Of a DNA stretch of 64,000 nt, positions 3,069 to 63,969 are shown one piece after another. The stretch covers positions 12,939 to 76,938 of the forward strand of contig JAVCCW010000029.1 in NCBI GenBank assembly GCA_030765235.1, in the 5' to 3' direction. The first letter of the stretch is position 1. Every line of letters begins with the position of its first letter. The notes beneath the pieces were generated by a model. It did no database searches. It saw nothing but the letters and a program-made list of their open reading frames with translations, and was not told the origin of the DNA. Origin of the DNA: Candidatus Gorgyraea atricola. GTDB taxonomy: Bacteria > Omnitrophota > Gorgyraeia > Gorgyraeales > Gorgyraeaceae. The translations under genes and the position numbers were made by a program.

Positions 3069-3113
3069 TATAAAAACAGAAAGCGTTTACAAGTGATTCA
3101 AAAGGAGAATACC

Positions 3114-6100
3114 ATGAAGAAATTATTCGCAATTATGCTTACAGTATCAATTAGCTTATTTCAAATAATGCCGGTTCTAGCTGAACCGGTTTTTTTATCT
3201 GATAAGGACATGGATAGTGTAGTGGCAGGCTACATTGAAGAAAACACCCTGACCATGACAGATGATAGCCAGCGCGATTTAAAAGCTCTTAGCAATGTAA
3301 ATGATGTTGACTCAGCAGTAGCAGCGCAGTCAAACGTCACGTTTGGCGGATTTGATGTGGAAAGTTACAACAGCGCCGCAGTAGAAAATAATGATGCGGA
3401 TCCAGGCATAACATTATTAGAAAGTATAGAATCTAATAATTCCCTTAGCCTAACTGATTTTGCGCAGGCTGAACTCCTTGCGCTCAGCAATGTAAACTCT
3501 GTTGACTCTGCAAACGCGGTCCAGTCCAATATCACAGTGTGCTCACAGTTTCCTTTGAGCGAAAATAAAGCAGACGTAGTTAACATAGATGCTGATAGCG
3601 AAGAAGAGATAGACGCCATTAACACCCTTTCACTCTCAGGCAGTGCTCAGACTTCACTGCATGCCCTTAGCAACCTTAACTCAGTAGACTCAGCAGTGGC
3701 AGTACAGTCGAATGCGAATTTCTGCGGAGAGAGCGTAGTAAATTCTAACATCGCTTGTGTAGATAATTTTAATGGTGATGCGGGTGATGTAGATACCTTG
3801 GATGATAACCCGCATTCACTCTCGATCATAGACAATGCACAGGAAAACCTGGCAGCATTCAGTAATGTCAATGCAGTTGACTCAGCTGTGTGCGTACAGC
3901 TCAATACCTCTATTAATATAAGAGAGGACGCCACTAACACAAATGACGGCTATGCCACGAATAACTCCACGCATCAGGCCAACTACATGGATCGCGACAA
4001 TGACCTTTATATAGCTGGCAATGGCCAGGCAGGCACAAGCGGCATTGTAAGCATAAACGCGGTAGACTCCGCGGAACTCGCGCAGGTAAACATTACAGTC
4101 TTCAGCGGCACAATAGGCGTGATGGACACAAACATCGTGCGCATAGTTTTAAATGATGACGGCGTTACATCAGGAACAGACTGGGATACTGACACCAACA
4201 CCATGACGCTCACTGGCAATGCTCAGCAGGGCCTTATAGCGCTCCACAATGAAAACCTCGTGGACTCAGCAGCCACCATAGAAGGAAACTACGGCGCGTT
4301 TGGCTACAATGACTTTAGATTCAACGAGGCCTATCTTATTAATAAAGACAAGGACTCCTATATATACGCGTCAGTCAATAGAATGGATCTTTCAGAAAAT
4401 GCCCAAAAGGATGTCCAGGTCGTAAGTAACCTGAACGCAGTAGACTCTGCGCCTGGCGTACAGACAAACATTACTTATGATGCGCACTGGGCCATTGGCG
4501 AAAACTATGCTGAGGCTACTAATAATGACGGCACATCCAGCTATTGGACTGATACAGATAATTCGCTTACCATGTCTGGCAGCGCACAGGAAGACTTAAC
4601 AGCGCTCACAAGCACAAACTCAGTTGACTCTGCGTCTATGGTGCAGACAAACCTATTTGCCTTAACTGCCAGTATGTCAACCGCTGTGAATGAAGCAACT
4701 ATCCTAAATACAGACGGCAGTGCCAATGGCGACTCCTGGGGCATAACCTATAATGTACTGGATCTCTCAGGAGATTCCCAGAGAGGCCTTGTAGCACAGA
4801 GTAATCTTAATGAAGTAGATTCAGCTACCTTGGTCCAAACCAATATTACTGCTGAAGAGGAGCAGGGTACACTTTCTGTAATAAGCTCCTCAAATACAGC
4901 AGACGTGGATAATCTTGATATAGTAACTGAGGATCAAAATGGCTTGCGTTCCTATAATAAGCTTACCATGACTGATAATACCCAGAGATCTTTACATGCC
5001 TTGAGCAATATAAATAGCGTTGATTCTGCTAGTGCTGTGCAGTCTAATCTAACAGTTAATAGCTCCCTGCCACCTATTGACTCAGAGCTAGTAGGGCTCG
5101 AGCTTACTGGTTATGCGCCTCTAGCGCCTATCCAGACTGAGATAGTAGCGCTTGAACTAGCTGGTTTTACTCCTGGCGATGATATTGAGATCGCCTTTCC
5201 TATGATCACAGGTATTGAGCTAAGTGATTATACAGAAATAGGAGACGACATAACCTCTACTAACATTGCTACAGTAGACAATATTGATGGTACAGCATAC
5301 TGGATGGATGTGCCTGAAGGCGAGATAATGAATCTTTTGAAACTCTCAGGCAATAGCCAGAGGAATCTCAGCGCGCTCTCAAATCTCAACACAGTTGATT
5401 CAGCCAATGCAGTCCAGATCAACATCGTATACGGAAATGGCGCAGGTATCGCGTCAAGCAACACTGCTACAGTAAAGAATGACGATGGCTCTACTAATTT
5501 TATGGGTTCACTAGAAGACGGCGGCGTGAGTGATGACACAAATAGGCTTAGACTTGTAGATAATGTACAGAGAAAACTCGAGGCATTAAGCAATGCCAAT
5601 ACAGTAGATTCAGCTACAGCAGTGCAGGCAAATCTCGCTGTAGGCGTATCAAGCTCTACGCAGACCAATACCGCGGATGTCTTAAATCAGGGTAGAGATA
5701 TCCTGGGAGAAGACATGACAGACCCGAAGAATCGCTTGACCTTAAAAGACAATGCACAGAGAGGACTAACTGCGCTAAGTAACCTTAACTCAGTTGACTC
5801 TGCTAACACAGTCCAGTCCAATATTACTATAAACAATACTGAAGGAGAAGCAGGAGGCATTACAAATGTGAGCGTGAACAAGACATATGCAGCGTTTGAT
5901 ATAGACTGCAGGATATCTCGCGAAAGACGTCATGCACCTGATATTGAACCTTGCGTTGACATCTCTTGCTGCCCTATATGGTATCTTGGAATAGAGTCAG
6001 AGCCTGGCACAAGAAACTATGGTAATGATGCAAAGAATACACTTAAGCTTGAAGGTGAGGCCCAGATGAAACTTACCGCGCTCAGTAACCTCAATGCTGT

Positions 6101-6965
6101 TTCCAGCGCCAGCGCAGTGCAGTCAAATATCACTGCGAATAAGATAGGTACAGTCACAGGCCCGATTGAAAATTTCAGCCTGAACATAGCTTCTGTTGAG
6201 AATATAACTGAAGATGGAGATAATACACTTAAGCTGCAAAACAAGGCCCAGAAAGACCTGTTAGCGCTCAGTAATGCTAATAGCGTTGACTCTGCCAATG
6301 CAGTGCAGTCGAATATCAGTATCAATGGCTCAGAAAATATCAGCATAAACAAGGCTGATGTGTATAATTCCAGCGGGGACAATCTCTGGCCAGAGAAGAA
6401 AACTGATAAGCTCACTATCAAAAACCACGCCCAGGAGGATCTAACTGCGCTCAGTAACCTTAATACAGTCTCATCAGCTAATGCAGTACAGTCTAACATT
6501 ACCGCGAATAATGTTACAGGCAGCGCCCTTAATGTAAGCGTGAACATTGCGCAGGTAAAAAATGCTCGCGGCACAGGTGAAAATAAACTCATACTTAAAA
6601 ACAAGGCGCAAAGAGGACTCACAGCTCTCAGCAACGTAAACTCTGTAGAAAGCGCAAATGCTGTGCAGTCCAACATCAGTGTCACCTCAACTGAGGATGT
6701 AGAAGCATGCGTTTCCAATATCAGCGCGAACTTCGCGAATGTCGAGAATAAAGATGAGGACGAAAATGAAGCGGATAAGCTCAATACCTTGAGCCTATCT
6801 AACCATGCGCAGCAGAATCTCATGGCACTCAGCAACTTAAATACAGTAAGCAGCGCAACAGCTGTGCAGTCCAACGCCGCGGTATCAAACGCTGCAGGTA
6901 TAAATATCAGCATGAACAATGCCCGAGTAGTTAACTCAGGCAGTTTTAACAACATAAGCGATTAA
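3114..6965 (+). CDS. Secreted giant repeat protein, paralog A: 18 copies of the repeat 'L-x-L-x-[DG]-x-AQ-x-x-L-x-ALSNLN-x-VDSANAVQSNIT', with a Cys-rich central module.
   Basis: RBS AAGGAG then ATG at 3114 (the ORF track's first Met at 3093 is probably upstream of the true start). Signal peptide MKKLFAIMLTVSISLFQIMPVLA. Repeats counted directly in the translation. Central module is 'CVDISCCPIWYLGIESEPGTRNYG'. Confidence 0.8.
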   Translation: MKKLFAIMLTVSISLFQIMPVLAEPVFLSDKDMDSVVAGYIEENTLTMTDDSQRDLKALSNVNDVDSAVAAQSNVTFGGFDVESYNSAAVENNDADPGITLLESIESNNSLSLTDFAQAELLALSNVNSVDSANAVQSNITVCSQFPLSENKADVVNIDADSEEEIDAINTLSLSGSAQTSLHALSNLNSVDSAVAVQSNANFCGESVVNSNIACVDNFNGDAGDVDTLDDNPHSLSIIDNAQENLAAFSNVNAVDSAVCVQLNTSINIREDATNTNDGYATNNSTHQANYMDRDNDLYIAGNGQAGTSGIVSINAVDSAELAQVNITVFSGTIGVMDTNIVRIVLNDDGVTSGTDWDTDTNTMTLTGNAQQGLIALHNENLVDSAATIEGNYGAFGYNDFRFNEAYLINKDKDSYIYASVNRMDLSENAQKDVQVVSNLNAVDSAPGVQTNITYDAHWAIGENYAEATNNDGTSSYWTDTDNSLTMSGSAQEDLTALTSTNSVDSASMVQTNLFALTASMSTAVNEATILNTDGSANGDSWGITYNVLDLSGDSQRGLVAQSNLNEVDSATLVQTNITAEEEQGTLSVISSSNTADVDNLDIVTEDQNGLRSYNKLTMTDNTQRSLHALSNINSVDSASAVQSNLTVNSSLPPIDSELVGLELTGYAPLAPIQTEIVALELAGFTPGDDIEIAFPMITGIELSDYTEIGDDITSTNIATVDNIDGTAYWMDVPEGEIMNLLKLSGNSQRNLSALSNLNTVDSANAVQINIVYGNGAGIASSNTATVKNDDGSTNFMGSLEDGGVSDDTNRLRLVDNVQRKLEALSNANTVDSATAVQANLAVGVSSSTQTNTADVLNQGRDILGEDMTDPKNRLTLKDNAQRGLTALSNLNSVDSANTVQSNITINNTEGEAGGITNVSVNKTYAAFDIDCRISRERRHAPDIEPCVDISCCPIWYLGIESEPGTRNYGNDAKNTLKLEGEAQMKLTALSNLNAVSSASAVQSNITANKIGTVTGPIENFSLNIASVENITEDGDNTLKLQNKAQKDLLALSNANSVDSANAVQSNISINGSENISINKADVYNSSGDNLWPEKKTDKLTIKNHAQEDLTALSNLNTVSSANAVQSNITANNVTGSALNVSVNIAQVKNARGTGENKLILKNKAQRGLTALSNVNSVESANAVQSNISVTSTEDVEACVSNISANFANVENKDEDENEADKLNTLSLSNHAQQNLMALSNLNTVSSATAVQSNAAVSNAAGINISMNNARVVNSGSFNNISD

Positions 6966-6976
6966 TCGTAGACCCC

Positions 6977-7011
6977 TGTCATTGCGAGGCCCAGCCTTGT
7001 GTCATTGCGAG
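6977..7011. repeat. Two direct copies of TGTCATTGCGAG, belonging to the second palindromic repeat family (TGTCATT/AATGACA termini).
   Basis: Seen at 6977-6988 and 7000-7011. Related sequences occur at 11477-11500, 17211-17270 and 41511-41574. Confidence 0.4.
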
Positions 7012-7152
7012 CGAAGCGAAGCAATCTCAATAACAGGACGTAAACTCCCTATACCAGGCCTAAAAAGGTGGCCTTTAACCACCAACATGGGAGAGAGGCC
7101 TTAAAATAGATCGGTGAAACATGGTGAAGTTAAAAACAAGGAGGAGAAAGTA

Positions 7153-10100
7153 ATGAGAAAGTTAGTATCGATTATCGCAGCTTTAAGTATCATTTTCTCA
7201 GGCGCTATTTCTCCAGTATTAGCAGCTGAAGTCCTGACAGACGAAGGCTTGGACTCTATTGTTGCAGGCGACCTTCCAGTCGGCGCTACTTTAGAGAACA
7301 ATACCTTAGATCTAAAAGAACAATCTCAGAGGTTCTTCAAAGGTCTAAGCAATGCAAATACTGTAGATTCAGCAAATGCAGTACAGTCAAACGTTACTAT
7401 GACAGGTGGCGGTCTGGCTGTAAGTATGAACGCAGCTGATGTTGACAACTTGGACGGTTTGAATGATGATTATTATGGCAGAGAGCAGAACAATGATCTG
7501 AAATTAAAAGATGATGCACAGAGCGGTTCATCAGGGTATCCACCAGCTGATGTTGGACAGGATTTCTTCGCAGCTTTGAGCAATCTCAACACTGTTGACT
7601 CTGCTAATGCTATCCAGTCAAACATCACTGCTGGTAATGATGACAAATTCAGCGGCAACAATGCTGATGTATTGAATGATGATGGTACGACTACTTGTCA
7701 CGTAGAGACTAACAATCTGATGATACTCAAAGACCAGGCACAGAATAGGCTTTGGGCACTCAGCAATGTTAACACAGTTGATTCAGCAAATGCTGTCCAG
7801 TCAAACATCACTGTGAATACAGGTGTTACTGGTGATAATGTAGCTGATGCTACAAGTCGTAACTGTGCTATAGTAGAGAATGCAGATGGCACATCAGTTG
7901 CAGAACCACTGCCAGAAACTGAACCTGCAAAACTGGTTAACAACAAGCTGGTCATAGACAATACTGCTCAGGCAGAACTCATGGCACTAAGCAACTTAAA
8001 CACAGTTGATTCTGCTAATGCAGTTCAGTCAAACATCAGTATTCATGGCGCAGATAATAACAATCAAAACCAGGCAGAGGTGCTTAATGAAGATGGTATA
8101 GCACCAACTGGTCAGAAGATTTTGAACAACACCTTAAAGATCAAGGATCAGGCACAGCATGATTTAATTGCACTCTCGAACTTGAATGCAGTTGATTCAG
8201 CAAGTGCTGTTCAGTCTAACATTACCTATGCTCATTGTAAAAACATCAATACTAACAAGGCTGATGTTGAGAACAATGATGGTGGAGTTGGAGTGGGTGT
8301 AGTAGATTCAAGCGGCAACCCAATGGATCCAGTAGTAGATAACAATGACGCACTTTCTCTTGGGACAAATGTCCAGGGTGGCCTTACTGCGCTTAGCAAT
8401 ATCAATTCAGTTGATTCTGCTAATGCAGTTCAGTCAAATATCACTGTTAATGACAGTGATTATGAAGGAACAGCAGGGCCAACAAAGGTGTTGAATATTA
8501 ACAAGAACATAGCTGGTGTTTTAAACACTGATGCTGATCCAGAGACAGATGGTGGAAATAATTCCATACTGCTCGGAGGCTTAGCTCAGAGCGGACTTAT
8601 GGCACTCAGCAATATTAATACCATTGATTCTGCTAACACAGTCCAGTCCAATGTCACTGTAAATAATACAGTTGGCGATGTTGGAGAGATTCACAACATA
8701 AGTAAGAATGAGGCCTTTGCATCATTTGACCTTTACTACCATGGTGGTTGCTGTGGCGGAAATGGTATAGATGATGGCGGATGTGTTGACATTAACTGTC
8801 CACCAATAAGTTGCATAGGTATAATTTCTGAACCTTGCACAAAGAACTATGCAGGTGATGGGAATAATATCCTTACACTTGAGGGTAGTGCACAGATTGG
8901 CTTAATGGCACTAAGTAACCTCACAGCTGTTTCCAGTGCAAGCGTTATACAATCCAACATTACTGCCAATGGTATTGGTAAGGAAGATGATGGATCTGGA
9001 ACAATGGTTGGAAGCGCAAATAATGTCAGAAACTTCAGTGAGAACATAGCTTCTGTTTGGAATTCTAGTGGAACAGGAGACAATACTCTTGAGTTAATGG
9101 ACAATGCACAGCAAGGTCTTTGTGCGCTCAGCAATGTTAACACAGTTGATTCAGCAAATGTTGTTCAGTCAAATATTACTGTAACAGCAGATGATGTGAA
9201 TCTTTGTGCTGAAGTTGGCTGGAATGTGGACTTTGATCGGCTTGTTTTAGGTCTTTGCCCGCAGGGCGACTCATTACTTGCTATTCAGTATCCTGATCTA
9301 GGAGAAATAGGACCAGATCTCTTAGGTGCTCTTAACAATAACATGTTTACATCTGCCACTATCAATGGTTTTGCACCTGATACAGAAAGCTGGATTTTCT
9401 TCAGGAGTTCATTAGGCAATCCGTCATGGGTCAATTGCTTAAAGCATATGTTTAAAGGTAAAGCGCTTTTAAACTACAGCATGAACGCAGCTGATGTCTA
9501 TGATGCAAGCGGTGACTCTCCGGAAGACAGTACAACTGATTTACTTACCATTGAAGTCAGCGCTCAGAAAAATCTAAGCGCATTGAGCAATCTCAACACA
9601 GTTGGTTCTGCAAATGCAGTTCAGTCAAATATAACTGTAAACTGGGTTGGCGGTGAGCTTAACAATGGACTTGTCAGCATCAATGCAAATCTTGCTAAAG
9701 TCCAAAATGCTGCTGGTATTGGAGAAAATAAGATGAAGCTAGCAGGCAGTGCCCAGGAAGAGCTAACAGCATTGAGTAATCTTAACACGGTTGAAAGCGC
9801 AAATGCAGTTCAGTCCAACGTCACACTTACCAGGGCATCAGGCGCAAGCGAAACATGCTTTGGTTGTGAAGGTGCTGCAATGGCATGTACTTTCAATTTG
9901 AATTCTGCTGAGGTTAGAAATTATGATAAGGTTAGAGATGTTGTTCAAGAAACTCCTATAGATGTACCTGATAGGGTTAATTCTTTGAAACTATCTGGTA
10001 TGGCACAGCAAAACCTTATCGCATTAAGTAACCTTAATGCAGTAAATTCAGCAACAGCTGTTCAGTCAAACATAACAGTGAGCAGCGGCATAGGCATGAA

Positions 10101-10155
10101 TGTTAGTGTCAATACCGCATGCGTATCAAACGTAGGTAGAAGTTTTGCAGATTAA
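7153..10155 (+). CDS. Secreted giant repeat protein, paralog B: 12 copies of the same ALSNLNTVDSANAVQSNIT-type repeat, with a Cys-rich central module.
   Basis: RBS AAGGAGG then ATG at 7153. Signal peptide MRKLVSIIAALSIIFSGAISPVLA. N-terminal motif 'LTDEGLDSIVAG' is shared with paralog A ('LSDKDMDSVVAG'). Module 'CVDINCPPISCIGIISEPCTKNYAG' is homologous to that of paralog A. Confidence 0.8.
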   Translation: MRKLVSIIAALSIIFSGAISPVLAAEVLTDEGLDSIVAGDLPVGATLENNTLDLKEQSQRFFKGLSNANTVDSANAVQSNVTMTGGGLAVSMNAADVDNLDGLNDDYYGREQNNDLKLKDDAQSGSSGYPPADVGQDFFAALSNLNTVDSANAIQSNITAGNDDKFSGNNADVLNDDGTTTCHVETNNLMILKDQAQNRLWALSNVNTVDSANAVQSNITVNTGVTGDNVADATSRNCAIVENADGTSVAEPLPETEPAKLVNNKLVIDNTAQAELMALSNLNTVDSANAVQSNISIHGADNNNQNQAEVLNEDGIAPTGQKILNNTLKIKDQAQHDLIALSNLNAVDSASAVQSNITYAHCKNINTNKADVENNDGGVGVGVVDSSGNPMDPVVDNNDALSLGTNVQGGLTALSNINSVDSANAVQSNITVNDSDYEGTAGPTKVLNINKNIAGVLNTDADPETDGGNNSILLGGLAQSGLMALSNINTIDSANTVQSNVTVNNTVGDVGEIHNISKNEAFASFDLYYHGGCCGGNGIDDGGCVDINCPPISCIGIISEPCTKNYAGDGNNILTLEGSAQIGLMALSNLTAVSSASVIQSNITANGIGKEDDGSGTMVGSANNVRNFSENIASVWNSSGTGDNTLELMDNAQQGLCALSNVNTVDSANVVQSNITVTADDVNLCAEVGWNVDFDRLVLGLCPQGDSLLAIQYPDLGEIGPDLLGALNNNMFTSATINGFAPDTESWIFFRSSLGNPSWVNCLKHMFKGKALLNYSMNAADVYDASGDSPEDSTTDLLTIEVSAQKNLSALSNLNTVGSANAVQSNITVNWVGGELNNGLVSINANLAKVQNAAGIGENKMKLAGSAQEELTALSNLNTVESANAVQSNVTLTRASGASETCFGCEGAAMACTFNLNSAEVRNYDKVRDVVQETPIDVPDRVNSLKLSGMAQQNLIALSNLNAVNSATAVQSNITVSSGIGMNVSVNTACVSNVGRSFAD

Positions 10156-13043: not shown

Positions 13044-13051
13044 ACCCAACA

Positions 13052-13098
13052 AAAAAAGCCGAGGCTGGACCTCGGCCATTGGCCGAGGTCCAGCCTCG
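13052..13098. terminator. Large A-tract-flanked palindrome: two inverted copies of the GCCGAGG-CTGGA-CCTCGGC hairpin. Likely a bidirectional terminator.
   Basis: AAAAAAAGCCGAGGCTGGACCTCGGCCATTGGCCGAGGTCCAGCCTCG. The same hairpin recurs inside leuS at 62150-62180. Confidence 0.55.
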
Positions 13099-13136
13099 AA
13101 AGTTTAAACCCGGGCTACAGCTTTACACTCGTGCAA

Positions 13137-54529: not shown

Positions 54530-55015
54530 TTACGGTTCTATCTTATCAATTTCTGGTATTCCTGAATAATTATTGCCAAAGTAGTAGTTATAACTTGAAA
54601 AAGGATACTCATCTGGCGTTGTTGTCAATTTTGCACGGACAGGATTATTATGGATGTATTCTATTTTCTGAAGCAGAACATCATGATTCCTGAGGCCTGT
54701 ATCATAGAATCTGTCTTGCCAGACTTTTCCTTGCGTTGAGAGCATTTTATTATATTTTCTTGCGAAATTACCTTTAATCATCTTCATGATATATGAAATA
54801 TTATAGATGCCATAGGTTTGAATTATGAGATGTAAATGGTCGGGCATTAAGCAGTAGGCAAATAGTTTATAGTCCAGAACCAGTTTAAAGAATTCGATTG
54901 TGGCCAAGAGGATTTTGCAGTTCCGTTCGTCACGGAAGATAGGCTTTCTATTGAAAGTTGCAGTAGTGATAAGATATGGATATCCCTCTTCGAAATATCT
55001 TTTGAGTCTGCCCAT
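54530..55015 (-). CDS. REP-associated tyrosine transposase (RAYT; IS200/IS605-like Y1 HUH transposase).
   Basis: HUH motif 'LMPDHLHLII', catalytic Tyr region 'YIHNNPVRAKL', about 160 aa, flanked on both sides by REP copies. Confidence 0.8.
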   Translation of the reverse strand: MGRLKRYFEEGYPYLITTATFNRKPIFRDERNCKILLATIEFFKLVLDYKLFAYCLMPDHLHLIIQTYGIYNISYIMKMIKGNFARKYNKMLSTQGKVWQDRFYDTGLRNHDVLLQKIEYIHNNPVRAKLTTTPDEYPFSSYNYYFGNNYSGIPEIDKIEP

Positions 55016-60989: not shown

Positions 60990-60999
60990 GTTTAGCCCG

Positions 61000-61072
61000 T
61001 TGACCCGTTACCCGTTTTGCCCGTTAACGGGCAAAACGGGTAAACGGACTAAACGGGTAACGGAAATTGCCG
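61000..61072. repeat. About 70-nt imperfect palindrome between accA and tRNA-Leu.
   Basis: GTTTAGCCCGTT ... CCCGTTTTGCCCGTTAACGGGCAAAACGGG ... AACGGACTAAAC. Confidence 0.4.
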
Positions 61073-61156
61073 GAGTGGCGGAACTGGCTGACGCGCACGA
61101 CTCAAAATCGTGTGAGGCAACCCCTCGTGTGGGTTCGACTCCCACCTCCGGCACCA
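61069..61156 (+). tRNA. tRNA-Leu (anticodon CAA), class II with a long variable arm; CCA encoded.
   Basis: Acceptor GCCGGAG/CTCCGGC. Anticodon stem CACGA/TCGTG with loop CTCAAAA. T-loop GGTTCGACTCC. Confidence 0.8.
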
Positions 61157-61279
61157 TGAACCACTCGCTAAGAATACTACTTTTAGTTGCGTATTCGCTC
61201 GGGTTCATGGCAGGCCATCAGATACTGGGGCGTGCCCCGTTCCAAATTGCCCGATTTTAAGAATGGGGCAATTTGGAAT

Positions 61280-61353
61280 GGGGCTGTAGTGAAGCGGGAT
61301 CACACGACAATGGCATTGTCGCATCACGGGTTCGATTCCCGTCAGCTCCACCA
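61280..61353 (+). tRNA. tRNA-Ala (anticodon GGC); CCA encoded.
   Basis: Acceptor GGGGCTG/CAGCTCC with the G3:U70 identity pair. Anticodon stem CGACA/TGTCG with loop ATGGCAT. T-arm ACGGG-TTCGATT-CCCGT. Confidence 0.7.
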
Positions 61354-61374
61354 AACTCGCCGAAGGCGAGTTTG
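61354..61374 (+). terminator. Hairpin CTCGCC-GAAG-GCGAG plus TTT after the tRNAs.
   Basis: Short GC stem followed by TTT. Confidence 0.4.
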
Positions 61375-61440
61375 ATCCTGAGCGAGCAATAAAATCCGAT
61401 GAATAAGAGGATTTTATGCGAGTCGAAGGACCTTTTTATT

Positions 61441-63969
61441 ATGAGTGAATTTTATCCGTTTAAGAAAATTGAGAAGAAGTGGCAGAAGGCGTGGGAGAAG
61501 AAGGGTCTTTTTAAGATGGACCCTAAGTCTTCTAAGGAAAAATACTATTGCCTCATGATGTTTCCGTATCCGTCTGCATCTCTGCATGTAGGACATGGCA
61601 GGAACTACATCATAGGTGATGTTGTAGCGCGTTATAAGATCATGCATAAGCTCAATGTCCTGGCGCCAATGGGCTGGGATGCATTTGGCCTTCCTGCAGA
61701 AAATGCTGCTATAAAGAGCGGCATCCATCCTAAGACTTCCACATTGAATAATATAAAGACAATGAAAAAGCAACTCGATGCCTGGGGCGTGGGTTATGAC
61801 TGGGATAGAGAGATTGCTTCGTGCATGCCTGACTATTACAAATGGACACAGTGGATATTTTTAGAGCTCTATAAAAAAGGTCTTGCCTATAAGAAAAAAG
61901 CCCAGGTCAACTGGTGTCCTTCCTGCCAAACGGTGCTTGCAAATGAGCAGGTCGTGGATGGCGCGTGCGAGAGATGCTCATCAGAGGTCGAACTGCGCAG
62001 CCTGGAGCAATGGTTTTTAAAGATCACTGATTACGCGCAAAGGCTTCTGGATGATCTGAGTCTTTTAAAGGATTGGCCAGAGCGTGTAAGGATCATGCAG
62101 AAGAACTGGATAGGCAGGAGCGAGGGCGTTGAGATAGATTTCAAGCTTGAAAAAAGCCGAGGTCCAGCCTCGGCTTTTTTGAGCTGTTTTACCACAAGGG
62201 TGGATACGATTTATGGCGCTACATATATGGTGCTTGCTGCAGAGCATCCAATGGTCGAGGAATTAGTAAAGAGTTCCAGTAAAGAAAAAGACATAAAGAA
62301 ATTCATCGCAGATGTTAAAAAAGAGAGTTTTACAGACAGGGTCTCAGCTACGACTGAGAAAAAAGGCATATTTACAGGCCGCTATGTTATAAATCCTGTG
62401 AATAATAAAAAGATCCCGCTCTGGATCTCGAATTATGTACTCATGGAATATGGCACTGGCGCAGTAATGGCAGTGCCTGCGCATGATGAAAGGGATTTTG
62501 AATTTGCGAAAAAGTATGATCTAGATATAGTGGTCGTGATCGATGATCCAAAAGAACATCTTGATGTAAAGACTATGAAAGAAGCCTTTGTTGAAGAAGG
62601 CGTAATGGTAAATTCTGATCAATTCAATGACCTGCCAAGCCTTAAGGCAATTGAAAAAATCGCAGACTACATGGAAAAAGAAGAGATCGGCAGGAGAAAG
62701 ATCCATTATAAGCTGCGGGACTGGCTCATCTCCAGGCAGAGATACTGGGGCGCGCCTATACCTATAGTGTATTGTGAAAAATGTGGCATACAGGCAGTGG
62801 ACGAGAAAGACCTGCCAGTTCTTTTGCCTGAAAAAGTTGAATTCAAGCCTCATGGCGAGTCACCTCTAAAACAAGCCAAGGGTTTTGTCAATGCAAAATG
62901 CCCTAAGTGTAAATCAAAAGCTCGACGAGAAATCGATACAATGGACACATTCGTGGACTCGAGCTGGTATTTTCTTAGATTCTTATCGTCAAAAGACAAC
63001 AAAAGACCTTTTGATAAAGAATTAATCAATAAGTGGCTTCCTGTAGATCAATATATAGGTGGCGTAGAGCATGCTATTCTGCATTTAATGTATTCAAGAT
63101 TTATTGTAAAGGTACTTTATGATTTGGGTCATGTAGGTTTTAAAGAACCATTCGCCAAACTCTTTACACAGGGCATGATCGTAAAAGATGGCGCAAAGAT
63201 GTCCAAGTCAAAAGGCAATGTAGTAAGTCCTGACGCGCTCATAGAAAAATACGGCGCAGACACAGTGAGACTTTATACATTGTTCATTGGTCCACCTGAG
63301 AAGGATGCAGAGTGGAATGACCGAGGAGTAGAGGGAGCGTGGAGATTTCTTAATCGGGTGTGGAGGCTTGTGGAAGGGACAAGGGACAAGGGACCCCATA
63401 CGAGAATCAAAGATTTCGTACGGGGCAGGCAAGGGACAAGGGATGAAGGCTTAAGACGAAGAACTCATCTTACTATTAAAAAAGTTACAGAAGATATGGA
63501 AGGGTCGTTTCATTTTAATACAGCGCTCAGTGCGATAATGGAGTTAGTGAATGAGATCTATAAAGTCAGGGACAAGGGACCCCATACGAGAATCAAAGAT
63601 TTCGTACGGGGCAGGCAAGGGACAAGAGACAAGGGGTATGGACTTGCCGTAGAGACTGTGATAATTCTTCTTGCGCCATTCGTGCCGCATGTTGCTGAAG
63701 AGATGTGGGAGAGGTTGGGGAATAAGAAAAGCGTGTTTGAAGCAGAGTGGCCAGGATATGACGAGGCTGCGCTTGCTCAGGACAAGATTACTATGCCAGT
63801 GCAGATAAATGGCAGGGTGCGCTCAAAAATAGAAGTAGCATCAAGCGCAGGTGATGAAGATATTAAAAGAATTGTGCTTGAAGATCCTGGAATAAATAAA
63901 TGGACTCAAGGTAAAGCGCCCAAGAAGATTATTGTTGTAAAAGGGAGATTAGTGAATCTTGTGGTATAA
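61441..63969 (+). CDS. leuS: Leucyl-tRNA synthetase carrying in-frame palindromic insertions.
   Basis: 'HVGHGRNY' HIGH motif, 'KMSKSKGN' KMSKS motif, editing-domain 'TTRVDTIYGATYMVLAAEHP'. Start at the internal ATG at 61441 (the ORF track starts at 61399). Confidence 0.9.
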   Translation: MSEFYPFKKIEKKWQKAWEKKGLFKMDPKSSKEKYYCLMMFPYPSASLHVGHGRNYIIGDVVARYKIMHKLNVLAPMGWDAFGLPAENAAIKSGIHPKTSTLNNIKTMKKQLDAWGVGYDWDREIASCMPDYYKWTQWIFLELYKKGLAYKKKAQVNWCPSCQTVLANEQVVDGACERCSSEVELRSLEQWFLKITDYAQRLLDDLSLLKDWPERVRIMQKNWIGRSEGVEIDFKLEKSRGPASAFLSCFTTRVDTIYGATYMVLAAEHPMVEELVKSSSKEKDIKKFIADVKKESFTDRVSATTEKKGIFTGRYVINPVNNKKIPLWISNYVLMEYGTGAVMAVPAHDERDFEFAKKYDLDIVVVIDDPKEHLDVKTMKEAFVEEGVMVNSDQFNDLPSLKAIEKIADYMEKEEIGRRKIHYKLRDWLISRQRYWGAPIPIVYCEKCGIQAVDEKDLPVLLPEKVEFKPHGESPLKQAKGFVNAKCPKCKSKARREIDTMDTFVDSSWYFLRFLSSKDNKRPFDKELINKWLPVDQYIGGVEHAILHLMYSRFIVKVLYDLGHVGFKEPFAKLFTQGMIVKDGAKMSKSKGNVVSPDALIEKYGADTVRLYTLFIGPPEKDAEWNDRGVEGAWRFLNRVWRLVEGTRDKGPHTRIKDFVRGRQGTRDEGLRRRTHLTIKKVTEDMEGSFHFNTALSAIMELVNEIYKVRDKGPHTRIKDFVRGRQGTRDKGYGLAVETVIILLAPFVPHVAEEMWERLGNKKSVFEAEWPGYDEAALAQDKITMPVQINGRVRSKIEVASSAGDEDIKRIVLEDPGINKWTQGKAPKKIIVVKGRLVNLVV
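62150..62180. repeat. Terminator-like hairpin element A6-GCCGAGG-TCCAG-CCTCGGC-T6, embedded in-frame in leuS.
   Basis: Reverse-complement-identical to one arm of the intergenic palindrome at 13052-13098. Encodes 'EKSRGPASAFLS'. Confidence 0.6.
63375..63443. repeat. About 60-nt palindromic element, copy 1, in-frame in leuS (encodes 'TRDKGPHTRIKDFVRGRQGTRD').
   Basis: AGGGACAAGGGACCCCATACGAGAATCAAAGATTTCGTACGGGGCAGGCAAGGGACAAG. Hairpin CCCCATACG/CGTACGGGG. Confidence 0.65.
63569..63636. repeat. About 60-nt palindromic element, copy 2, in-frame in leuS, about 190 nt downstream of copy 1.
   Basis: Near-identical direct repeat of 63375-63443. Confidence 0.65.

Follow-up and report, generated by a model that had tools for sequence, protein, structure and literature searches.

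The leucyl-tRNA synthetase gene (leuS) of the 64,000-nucleotide stretch of DNA analyzed here (the window) contains a terminator-like hairpin within its reading frame, which is most likely, at a probability of roughly 80%, a copy of a REP/REPIN-type mobile repeat, tolerated in frame in a loop of LeuS and vertically inherited. Sequence comparison shows the leuS segment to be an insertion when set against orthologs, assigns the hairpin to a dispersed multi-copy repeat family, and links that family to a Y1/RAYT-like transposase gene. Family membership, the link to the Y1 gene, compensatory stem changes, and synteny together indicate a REP/REPIN-like element with in-frame copies of the kind known as Rickettsia palindromic elements (RPE). 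A first-pass annotation of this DNA had offered two readings, an internal attenuator of leuS or an RPE-like mobile palindrome inserted in a loop, and it is the second that gains support from the insertion, the family, and the Y1 link.

The hairpin unit in leuS and its copies in the window

The leuS gene (61399..63969, plus strand; E = 4e-252 to T. thermophilus LeuRS 1h3n) is intact, is the sole long open reading frame (ORF) at the hairpin site, and has the HVGH, KMSKS, and TTRVDT motifs; its true start is probably the ATG at 61441, which matches where orthologs begin. The REP-like unit, as read from the sequence, is a singlet at 62150..62180 on the plus strand, reading AAAAAAGCCGAGGTCCAGCCTCGGCTTTTTT, and its 31 nt consist of A6, a 7-bp stem (GCCGAGG/CCTCGGC) enclosing the loop TCCAG, and T6. 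It is translated as codons 251-261 of the 856-codon ORF, E251-KSRGPASAF-L261 (EKSRGPASAFL), with a Leu codon directly 5' of the hairpin, so that sequence and translation confirm the earlier claim of a terminator-like hairpin in frame in leuS. The near-canonical terminator shape claimed for the RNA was also found: a GC stem is followed by U6, and a terminator scan flagged 62150-62180 on the plus strand. The RNA of the 31-nt unit folds at -19.6 kcal/mol (z = -5.5), which no shuffle equalled, and the core stem alone, preceding U6, at -13.5 kcal/mol. A terminator proper is expected at the end of a transcription unit, 3' of the stop codon, while this one lies at codons 251-261. The unit ends in A-runs and T-runs, and neither a GTAG nor a CGTC tag is present in the copies of the window and its relatives. 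An Rfam scan of the window at gathering thresholds returned two tRNAs only and no match at the hairpins.

The 19-nt core GCCGAGGTCCAGCCTCGGC has three copies in the window, exact at 62156 (plus strand) and 13058 (minus strand) and with two mismatches at the 3' end at 13082 (plus strand), compared with no copies in 100 dinucleotide-preserving shuffles; sites of the repeat recur about once per 30 kb. Two of these copies form an intergenic doublet. Its left half (13051..13077, minus strand) is a REP-like unit of A7 and the core, with the loop reading CTGGA on the plus strand, and when reverse-complemented it matches the leuS core and T-run exactly; 25 nt of the leuS copy, T-run included, are the reverse complement of 13052-13076. 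The right half (13082..13100, plus strand) is oriented as the leuS copy and identical to it at 17/19 positions. Together the halves form a REPIN-like hairpin of 18-19 bp with a 3-nt apical loop (-42 kcal/mol). The leuS element had been described as identical to an intergenic terminator, which stands for the sequence of one arm but not for the structure, since the site is an inverted doublet rather than a single hairpin. Its label as the terminator of the OMP gene is unsupported: the doublet is terminator-like on the minus strand only, and the genes on either side of it lie on the plus strand. The more general claim, that one short element exists in coding and intergenic contexts, is borne out by the leuS copy and the doublet at 13051-13100.

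An insertion in LeuS conserved at the nucleotide level

Protein alignment and codon comparison with L045, L046, and L047 place the stretch that differs from insert-free orthologs at 62144..62188 on the plus strand. Between the conserved AAG (K249) and TGT (C263) there are 13 codons compared with 9 in orthologs, or 39 compared with 27 nt, a net gain of 12 nt. In the window and in four relatives (86-93% LeuS identity) the protein reads K-LEKSRG(PA/RT)SAFLS-C, while 16 orthologs with LeuS identity of 81% or less have a 9-residue loop, except for two with a different insert. The ortholog alignment that the first-pass annotation had proposed as a check therefore indicates that the segment is not ancestral, with a 13-residue loop against 9. 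Because the insert-free loops are too diverged (about 80% protein identity), insertion boundaries and any target-site duplication are undefinable, and what can be stated is that 39 nt replace 27.

In the HMMER alignment to T. thermophilus LeuRS, the four additional residues fall between K239 and E240, where the first beta-hairpin of the editing domain (CP1) has its tip; this agrees with the position in the editing-domain region suggested earlier. The loop is probably surface-exposed, given the alignment to a solved LeuRS and the natural variation in loop length; an AlphaFold2 model of LeuS from a 20-sequence alignment (mean pLDDT 47) was too poor to confirm exposure.

The window, L041, and L044 share an identical 31-mer, with 500-nt flanks that are 89-94% identical. 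Across four lineages (85-89% gene identity) the stem, the A-run, and the T-run of the unit are unchanged, synonymous sites included, and the A-run is as conserved as the T-run. In one lineage the loop residues PA are replaced by RT and every stem base is kept; together with the conservation of synonymous sites, this points to constraint on nucleotides rather than amino acids. Such exact conservation of the leuS copy could reflect a function of the hairpin there rather than neutrality.

The same observations bear on the proposal that selection acts on the peptide, with SRGPASAF altering LeuRS editing or tRNA handling from beside the TTRxDT motif and the palindrome being merely its source. The insert lies only seven residues before this threonine-rich editing motif and has been retained in the four lineages, and in another lineage (L171) a different, unrelated palindrome sits in this loop. 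However, peptide-level selection does not account for the conserved third positions or for the exchange of PA for RT with an intact stem, the same peptide is found in unrelated proteins (GH94, RAYT, and UvrA), and the loop varies freely among insert-free orthologs. Selection on the peptide is accordingly regarded as quite improbable.

A dispersed family with in-frame copies in other genes

The exact 19-mer is found in a related, fragmentary metagenome-assembled genome (MAG), CAZWYD01, whose leuS is identical to that of L041, at 12 sites comprising at least 14 units on 10 short contigs; every other genome match is isolated, one per genome, and falls in an unrelated genome, almost always of high GC. 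The CAZWYD01 sites are mostly inverted doublets with A/T runs, both head-to-head and tail-to-tail. Four of the 12 are in frame within genes (leuS, uvrA, dxs, and a transposase gene), and metagenome contigs add in-frame copies in queA (L165) and a GH94 gene (L157). The search for copies in other coding sequences suggested by the earlier annotation was thus productive, with the uvrA copies on L022/L079, the dxs copy on L040, the copies in queA, the GH94 gene, and the transposase gene itself, and a further copy in an unnamed ORF (L101). Clearly, then, the alternative set out in that annotation, ancestral LeuS sequence with no further copies, does not describe this element. In uvrA, dxs, queA, and GH94 the insert has Pfam domains to either side of it, and the uvrA doublet is identical at 49/49 positions compared with 84% in its flanks.

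The metagenome was also scanned with the loop left free (pattern AAGCCGAGGNNNNNCCTCGGCTT). Among the matches listed there are more than 120 contigs from very diverse organisms, mostly with unrelated terminators, and about 90 different loops; the stem alone is therefore not specific, and the scan serves as a control. The family loop is found at nine or more loci. Contigs with the loop TCCAG/CTGGA, among the matches listed, are all of 41-45% GC, and several repeat contexts known from the related MAG, namely uvrA, the spacer upstream of glyS, and the transposase locus.

These data bear on whether the leuS hairpin resembles an ordinary terminator by chance or convergence, or is an assembly artefact. 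Terminators commonly have the shape of GCCGAGG/CCTCGGC with A/T flanks, and the diversity of the loop-free matches likewise speaks for coincidence. However, identity between copies spans the loop and both flanks (25-31 nt) with none in shuffles, the family-loop contigs share a narrow GC range and several share their contexts with the related MAG, and the same leuS insert is found in five independent assemblies. Chance and artefact are already refuted, and practically no probability attaches to either. Neither empty/filled polymorphism nor recent transposition was seen for the family.

The distribution of copies also bears on the first of the earlier readings, that of a putative intragenic attenuator; in such a device the stem and U6 would stop RNA polymerase whenever the lead ribosome lags, coupling leuS transcription to translation. 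The canonical shape on the sense strand, with a core stem and U6 recognized by the terminator scan, is suggestive, as is the invariance of stem, A-run, and T-run at synonymous sites in four lineages, and there is published evidence that a ribosome suppresses intrinsic terminators close behind it (PMC5021804, PMC4824070). Only the shape stands, however, because the unit recurs, in either orientation, also as doublets, and with T-runs of varying length, in uvrA, dxs, queA, GH94, and the transposase gene, which leaves nothing specific to leuS. In addition, the A-run, irrelevant for termination, is conserved like the T-run, pairing of the A-U arms would sequester the U-tract in the stem, and the intergenic copy in the window is wrongly oriented to terminate its neighbours. 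An attenuator role for the leuS hairpin is not needed, and we consider it unlikely. A broader version, in which the in-ORF hairpins of leuS, uvrA, dxs, and queA are translation-gated terminators, the conserved copy in the transposase ORF, with its compensatory stem changes across genera, is autoregulatory, and the repeat has been co-opted as a coupling sensor, is similarly doubtful; if true, a mobile repeat would act as a genome-wide sensor of transcription-translation coupling.

Association with a Y1 transposase gene

An identical 31-mer adjoins and lies within a Y1 transposase gene in relatives. The ORF on contig L036 (286..927) scores 25.9 bits against Pfam Y1_Tnp (cut-off 23), and in the alignment of its orthologs HFH and (R)YIHLNP are conserved and H78, H80, and Y138 invariant. 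Units are found on both flanks of this ORF and one inside it, likewise on L048 and L133. The more distant ortholog on L172 (56% identical) has three flanking copies and one internal copy of TGGTCGAGG-CGAAA-CCTCGACCA, while that on L049 (52% identical) has an internal doublet GCGGAGG-TTTCG-CCTCCGC and no intact flanking copy. Between lineages three of the seven stem pairs have changed on both sides, with 97% of cells still paired. In L036, L048, L049, and L172 the order is small ORFs, Y1 gene, ECF sigma, anti-sigma, and spoVG; the Y1 gene is upstream of an ECF sigma factor gene in all these orthologs, and its synteny is conserved across orthologs of 52-94% identity. The hairpin inside the transposase ORF is itself conserved.

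The L036 protein belongs to a clade of 210-250-residue proteins, with more than 1000 members, spread over Omnitrophota and Patescibacteria-like MAGs. The L036 protein reaches 23.3 bits against the NCBIfam equivalog REP_Tyr_transpos (NF047646) and so misses its cut-off of 80, while a second Y1 ORF in L041 reaches 70 bits; one protein, P0126, was not placed on any contig. The cognate transposase gene was found in relatives and was not found in the 64-kb window. Two other Y1 genes were considered as mobilisers and rejected. The one beside leuS in L041 (17245-17745) has a different inverted repeat, of 32 nt, on its flanks, and the Y1_Tnp ORF in the window (54530..55015) is flanked by palindromes of another family, GTAGGCCAGGTTTAAACCTGGCCTAC, which carries GTAG. 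The GTAG tag is the site cleaved by the E. coli RAYT. This second REP/RAYT pair indicates that the lineage does run such systems.

Comparison with known repeats

In-frame palindromic insertions are already known from Rickettsia and other bacteria, and REPs lying inside uvrA and tRNA synthetase genes have been published, as set out in an account of 'REP-decorated proteins' (Di Nocera, De Gregorio & Rocco 2013, PMC3733652). There, REPs are described as palindromes of 20-40 bp, mostly extragenic and often inverted dimers, of which a minority lie in frame in genes for known proteins; hosts include uvrA (Opitutus terrae, Thioalkalivibrio) and tRNA synthetase genes, and dimers encode 20-30 residues. 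The in-frame copies in uvrA, dxs, queA, and leuS resemble these. The families described in that account are tagged with GTAG/CGTC at one end, however, while the present unit is untagged and flanked by A- and T-runs; the account does not extend to an Omnitrophota-like phylum, nor is a copy inside the transposase ORF itself known from it, and the in-gene share here (4/12 sites in one MAG) appears high.

A further close parallel is with REPIN-RAYT systems or REPtrons (Nunvar 2010; Bertels & Rainey 2011, PMC3116915; Ton-Hoang 2012), in which a Y1 gene (HUH and Tyr) is flanked by the hairpin; inverted doublets that give a long hairpin, a syntenic gene, and hairpin and gene changing together between lineages are further likenesses. 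The present protein differs in scoring below the NCBIfam RAYT cut-off (23 vs 80 bits) and the unit in having no GTAG cleavage motif. RPE (Ogata et al. 2000) are similarly in-frame palindromes in functional, often essential proteins, which tolerate them in surface segments, and related species share them by inheritance. RPE-1 is given as 100-150 bp and 30-50 residues (PMC3184786) compared with 31 nt and about four net residues per singlet here, there is no sequence relation, and short RPEs are listed as CGTC-tagged with no dedicated transposase known (PMC3733652), while the unit here has no CGTC tag. Among terminator-like dispersed repeats, SPRITE of Streptococcus pneumoniae is listed as 'Rho-independent terminator-like' (PMC3184786). 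SPRITE and paired Neisseria uptake sequences share with the present family the shape of an intrinsic terminator and are often inverted pairs after genes, but SPRITE is about 105 bp. Paired Neisseria uptake sequences are terminator-shaped dispersed repeats at about 1 per kb, far denser than the sites here, and are not known to have a transposase partner.

Proposed origin and implications

The REP/REPIN-type reading would make the unit a non-autonomous element spreading within the genome. Its most likely mobiliser would be an IS200-like tyrosine transposase (Y1, RAYT-like) that has become domesticated and acts on the hairpin in single-stranded form. A single copy would have landed at the tip of the LeuS editing-domain beta-hairpin in the common ancestor of a small Omnitrophota-like clade and been inherited vertically since. 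It may have survived because it has no stop in six frames, kept the frame (+12 nt, +4 residues), and met a loop that tolerates extra residues, in which case it would be neutral for LeuS; the stop-free frames have little weight, as they are not rare by chance for a 31-nt palindrome. The constancy of the unit while its flanks drift may reflect selection on the hairpin or gene conversion among copies. Its likeness to a terminator would belong to the family as a whole (A-run, GC stem, T-run) and not be a device made for leuS, and a translating ribosome would be expected to keep the in-ORF hairpin from forming and so mask termination.

On this evidence REP/RAYT-type repeats with RPE-like in-frame copies extend to uncultured Omnitrophota-like bacteria, in a family that has the shape of a terminator without a GTAG/CGTC tag and about a third of whose sampled sites in one MAG are in genes, several of them housekeeping genes. 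Prediction tools will call such units terminators inside ORFs. They also inflate the 'variable loops' of marker-protein alignments such as those of LeuS and UvrA and can break metagenome assemblies, while at the same time they are natural markers of loops that tolerate insertion.

The palindromic unit in leuS and its intergenic counterpart

The REP-like unit in leuS, a 31-nt palindrome with a GCCGAGG/CCTCGGC stem, a TCCAG loop and flanking A6 and T6 runs, lies at 62150-62180 on the plus strand (AAAAAAGCCGAGGTCCAGCCTCGGCTTTTTT). The ORF containing it (61399..63969, plus strand) encodes leucyl-tRNA synthetase. It matches T. thermophilus LeuRS at E = 4e-252 and has LeuS homologs in the thousands, the best-named being from "Candidatus Omnitrophota/Omnitrophica". 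The first ATG of this ORF (61399) adds 14 residues absent from all orthologs, which begin at the Met of 61441 (MSEFYPFKK); the real start is probably 61441. The unit is translated as E251-K-S-R-G-P-A-S-A-F-L261, and sequence, ORF, translation and homology all bear out the in-frame hairpin described in the first-pass annotation. That annotation also called it identical to an intergenic terminator, which is true for the sequence of one arm of that site. The 19-nt core (stem plus loop) occurs three times in the window, at 62156 (+), 13058 (-) and, with two mismatches, 13082 (+), and in none of 100 shuffles of the window. The last two copies make 13051-13100 an inverted doublet, predicted to fold in RNA as a single 18-19 bp hairpin of -42 kcal/mol; however, the doublet has a terminator shape on the minus strand only, while its neighbours, an outer-membrane-type fragment and a beta-barrel porin, are both on the plus strand.

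Insertion into the LeuS editing domain

When the window LeuS was aligned with 19 homologs, the four closest (P0001, P0002, P0003 and P0074; 86-93% identity) had the common form K-LEKSRG(PA/RT)SAFLS-C, and homologs at 81% identity or below had a 9-residue loop, such as IADTDIVLR, with the exception of two carrying another insert. The segment is thus an insertion and not ancestral sequence, amounting at the DNA level to 39 nt in the window versus 27 nt in insert-free orthologs. A HMMER alignment to the solved T. thermophilus LeuRS, from which residue numbers were counted, confirms the placement in the editing domain: four extra residues fall between K239 and E240, in the turn joining the two strands that open CP1, seven residues ahead of T247-T248-R249-x-D251-T252. 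This loop tolerates inserts. In L171, a contig from another lineage, it contains an unrelated perfect palindrome, GATGTTCAAGGC-GAA-GCCTTGAACATC (about 2215-2245; 12-bp stem, -20.9 kcal/mol), which encodes DVQGEALNI, and a decayed version occupies the same loop in P0014/L170, suggesting that palindromes land, or survive, here repeatedly.

A dispersed family with in-frame copies

Exact matches to the 19-mer, sought in one genome per species, were singles in unrelated, nearly all high-GC genomes, apart from those in the fragmentary MAG CAZWYD01 (about 42% GC), which has 12 sites on 10 contigs, together carrying at least 14 units. CAZWYD01 is a related species, because its leuS is identical to that of metagenome contig L041 and has 89% DNA identity to that of the window. 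At most of its sites the unit is doubled in inverted orientation, with A/T runs, and both orders occur; family stems are constant and loops vary (TCCAG, CCGGA, TTCGG). When the loop was left free in a metagenome scan, the matches listed were mostly unrelated terminators, so the stem by itself is not diagnostic, and at least nine further loci had a family loop. Chance resemblance or artefact is excluded by these loci together with the shuffling result, the multi-site family in CAZWYD01 and the same leuS insert in relatives.

Four of the 12 CAZWYD01 sites are within ORFs (leuS, uvrA, dxs and a transposase gene). The leuS copy (L030) is in frame, as are a uvrA doublet (L022) encoding KAEAGPRQSRGPASAFKE and a doublet in the C-terminal half of dxs (L040), which encodes AEKAEVQPRLFEKPRLDLGFSK between two transketolase domains. 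Metagenome contigs add a doublet in queA (L165), where the Pfam domain spans the whole protein, a singlet in a GH94-type gene (L157), where the LeuS frame is used again (SKSRGPASAFL), and an in-frame copy in an ORF without a gene name (L101). The element suspected of being mobile has in-frame copies in uvrA, dxs, queA, GH94-type and transposase genes. Stop codons are absent from the unit in every one of the six reading frames, which helps in-frame copies survive but is not unusual for so short a palindrome. In L025 (3240-3320, a doublet bracketed by AAATAAGTTTACTT and AAGTAAACTTATTT), L015 (60-140) and L036 (924-958) the palindromic symmetry does not end with the unit but takes in copy-specific flanking sequence; doublets may have arisen by inverted duplication including flanking DNA, or units may have inserted into existing hairpins.

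A Y1 transposase gene bearing the unit

Contig L036 has a 213-residue ORF with HUH (HFH) and YIHLNP motifs that scores 25.9 bits against Pfam Y1_Tnp (cut-off 23). One unit lies upstream with the loop in the opposite orientation, the exact leuS 31-mer lies immediately 3' of the stop codon, and a third is in frame within the ORF, encoding KKSRGSASAFL. L048 and L133 show this layout too, with proteins 94% identical. More distant orthologs have their own hairpins with lineage-specific stems: TGGTCGAGG-CGAAA-CCTCGACCA in L172 (56% identity), with three flanking copies and one internal (1309-1331), and an internal doublet, GCGGAGG-TTTCG-CCTCCGC, in L049 (52% identity; 3161-3209). An ECF sigma factor gene lies downstream of the Y1 gene in L036, L048, L049 and L172. 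Sites occur roughly every 30 kb, so that units on both sides of, and within, precisely a Y1 gene are very unlikely by chance. Between hairpin versions, three of seven stem pairs differ at both positions, with pairing kept in 97% of cells. Since the sequences compared had been chosen by hand, and since a palindrome duplicated in inverted orientation can by itself give matched changes, this is support and not proof. The L036 protein scores 23 bits against the NCBIfam RAYT (REP-associated tyrosine transposase) model, below the cut-off of 80, and the unit has no GTAG tag; the labels used here are therefore "REP-like" and "RAYT-like", not certified membership.

The internal hairpin (452-482 in L036, 3158-3188 in L048), a singlet or a doublet, holds its position in the stretch separating the first strand-helix unit from the HUH motif even in orthologs of only 52% identity, and the eight closest homologs all have the peptide (R/G)G-x-(A/T)-S. 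It may reflect invasion of this site more than once, or a regulatory hairpin that has been conserved.

Conservation and origin of the leuS copy

The window, L041 and L044 do not differ at any position of the leuS 31-mer, against 89-94% identity over the surrounding 500 nt; likewise, the uvrA doublet is identical at 49/49 positions versus 84% in its flanks, and a unit upstream of glyS at 26/26 versus 88%. The transposase locus itself shows gain and loss of units, L036 having a singlet and L048 a doublet. Such exact conservation could come either from nucleotide-level selection on the hairpin or from homogenisation by recombination among copies. The leuS unit of L043 differs at three loop positions only, its loop being the reverse complement of the variant inside the L036 transposase gene, which favours homogenisation without proving it.

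Constraint on stem bases and not residues, and the same peptide in unrelated proteins, make it very improbable that the inserted peptide was kept for a benefit to the protein. An internal attenuator, the first alternative in the earlier annotation, has in its favour a sense-strand hairpin followed by U6, but unrelated genes carry the unit too, in either orientation, so that nothing about it is specific to leuS. The A-run, dispensable for termination, is as strictly conserved as the T-run, and a ribosome trailing RNA polymerase closely keeps terminator hairpins from folding (PMC5021804, PMC4824070). Attenuation in leuS is therefore not needed to explain the data, and is unlikely. With a probability of roughly 80%, a REP/REPIN-like unit, probably Y1-mobilised, would have entered leuS once, in the clade ancestor, with the reading frame kept and the loop accepting the insert, and would afterwards have been inherited vertically. 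The annotation's second alternative, a mobile palindrome tolerated in a surface loop, agrees with the insertion, the dispersed family, the in-frame copies and the other inserts in the loop; surface exposure does not gain from the AlphaFold model of LeuS, which at pLDDT 47 is too poor to inform on the loop.

Other repeats and transposases

A second, classical REP/RAYT pair is present in the window, where a Y1_Tnp ORF (54530..55015, minus strand; 49.8 bits, Pfam) has the GTAG-tagged palindrome GTAGGCCAGGTTTAAACCTGGCCTAC on both sides. At least 10 window copies of this 26-nt perfect palindrome were found (10172, 10670, 11433, 13136, 17279, 41531, 42211, 51867, 54483, 55030, 55062 and 56654), and those compared with the ORF list are intergenic. 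A third Y1 transposase (L041 17212-17817, 166 residues), a few kb 3' of leuS, scores 70 bits against the RAYT model, just below the cut-off of 80. The inverted repeat on its two sides, GGGACGGTTCTTAGCCCAATCCCAGACCTGTC (32 nt), has no relation to either of the other families, and L046 lacks a Y1 gene in the syntenic stretch.

Within leuS, a 62-nt direct repeat (63382-63443 and 63568-63629; 98% identical, in frame) encodes RDKGPHTRIKDFVRGRQGTRD twice, once in each of the two hypervariable linkers that the C-terminal part contains, and both copies are hairpins, CCCCATACGAGAATC-AAA-GATTTCGTACGGGG, between GGGACAA heptamer repeats; the hairpin part has no other copy in the window or the relatives' DNA examined. 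In orthologs (P0003, P0009, P0022, P0074 and others) the same linkers (alignment columns about 670-705 and 744-766) have peptides resembling 7-nt tandem repeats translated in all three frames, namely SELRTPNSEL as (TCCGAAC)n, TEYGIRNTEYG as (ACGGAAT)n and TRDKGQETRDKG as (ACAAGGG)n, by back-translation, with DNA confirmation for the GGGACAA type only. Directly upstream of leuS are tRNA-Leu(CAA) (61069-61156) and tRNA-Ala(GGC) (61280-61353), interleaved in 60990-61380 with further palindromes, among them ACCCGTTTTGCCCGTT/AACGGGCAAAACGGGT (near 61005-61040) and AAACTCGCC-GAA-GGCGAGTTT (61354-61374), so that ORFs 61000..61260 and 61187..61375 are spurious. Two very large ORFs at 3093-10155 (1290 and 1013 residues) are made of about 21 diverged repeats of roughly 180-230 nt with a conserved ALSNxNxVDSANAVQSNIT-like core (families D1-D4).

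Relation to known repeat systems

A Y1 gene flanked by repeat units is known from REP/RAYT systems as the REPtron (PMC3116915, PMC3733652). Di Nocera et al. 2013 (PMC3733652) also document in-frame intragenic REPs, as single units and as dimers encoding 20-30 residues, with hosts including uvrA (Opitutus terrae, Thioalkalivibrio) and tRNA synthetase genes, both host types being shared with the present family. Rickettsia RPEs are the classic case of in-frame palindromic repeats (PMC3184786, PMC3733652). The literature search found no paper tying Omnitrophota to such repeats. New here are the host group, a unit shaped like a terminator and without a tag, the large fraction of sites within genes, and the copy within the transposase ORF, kept across genera.
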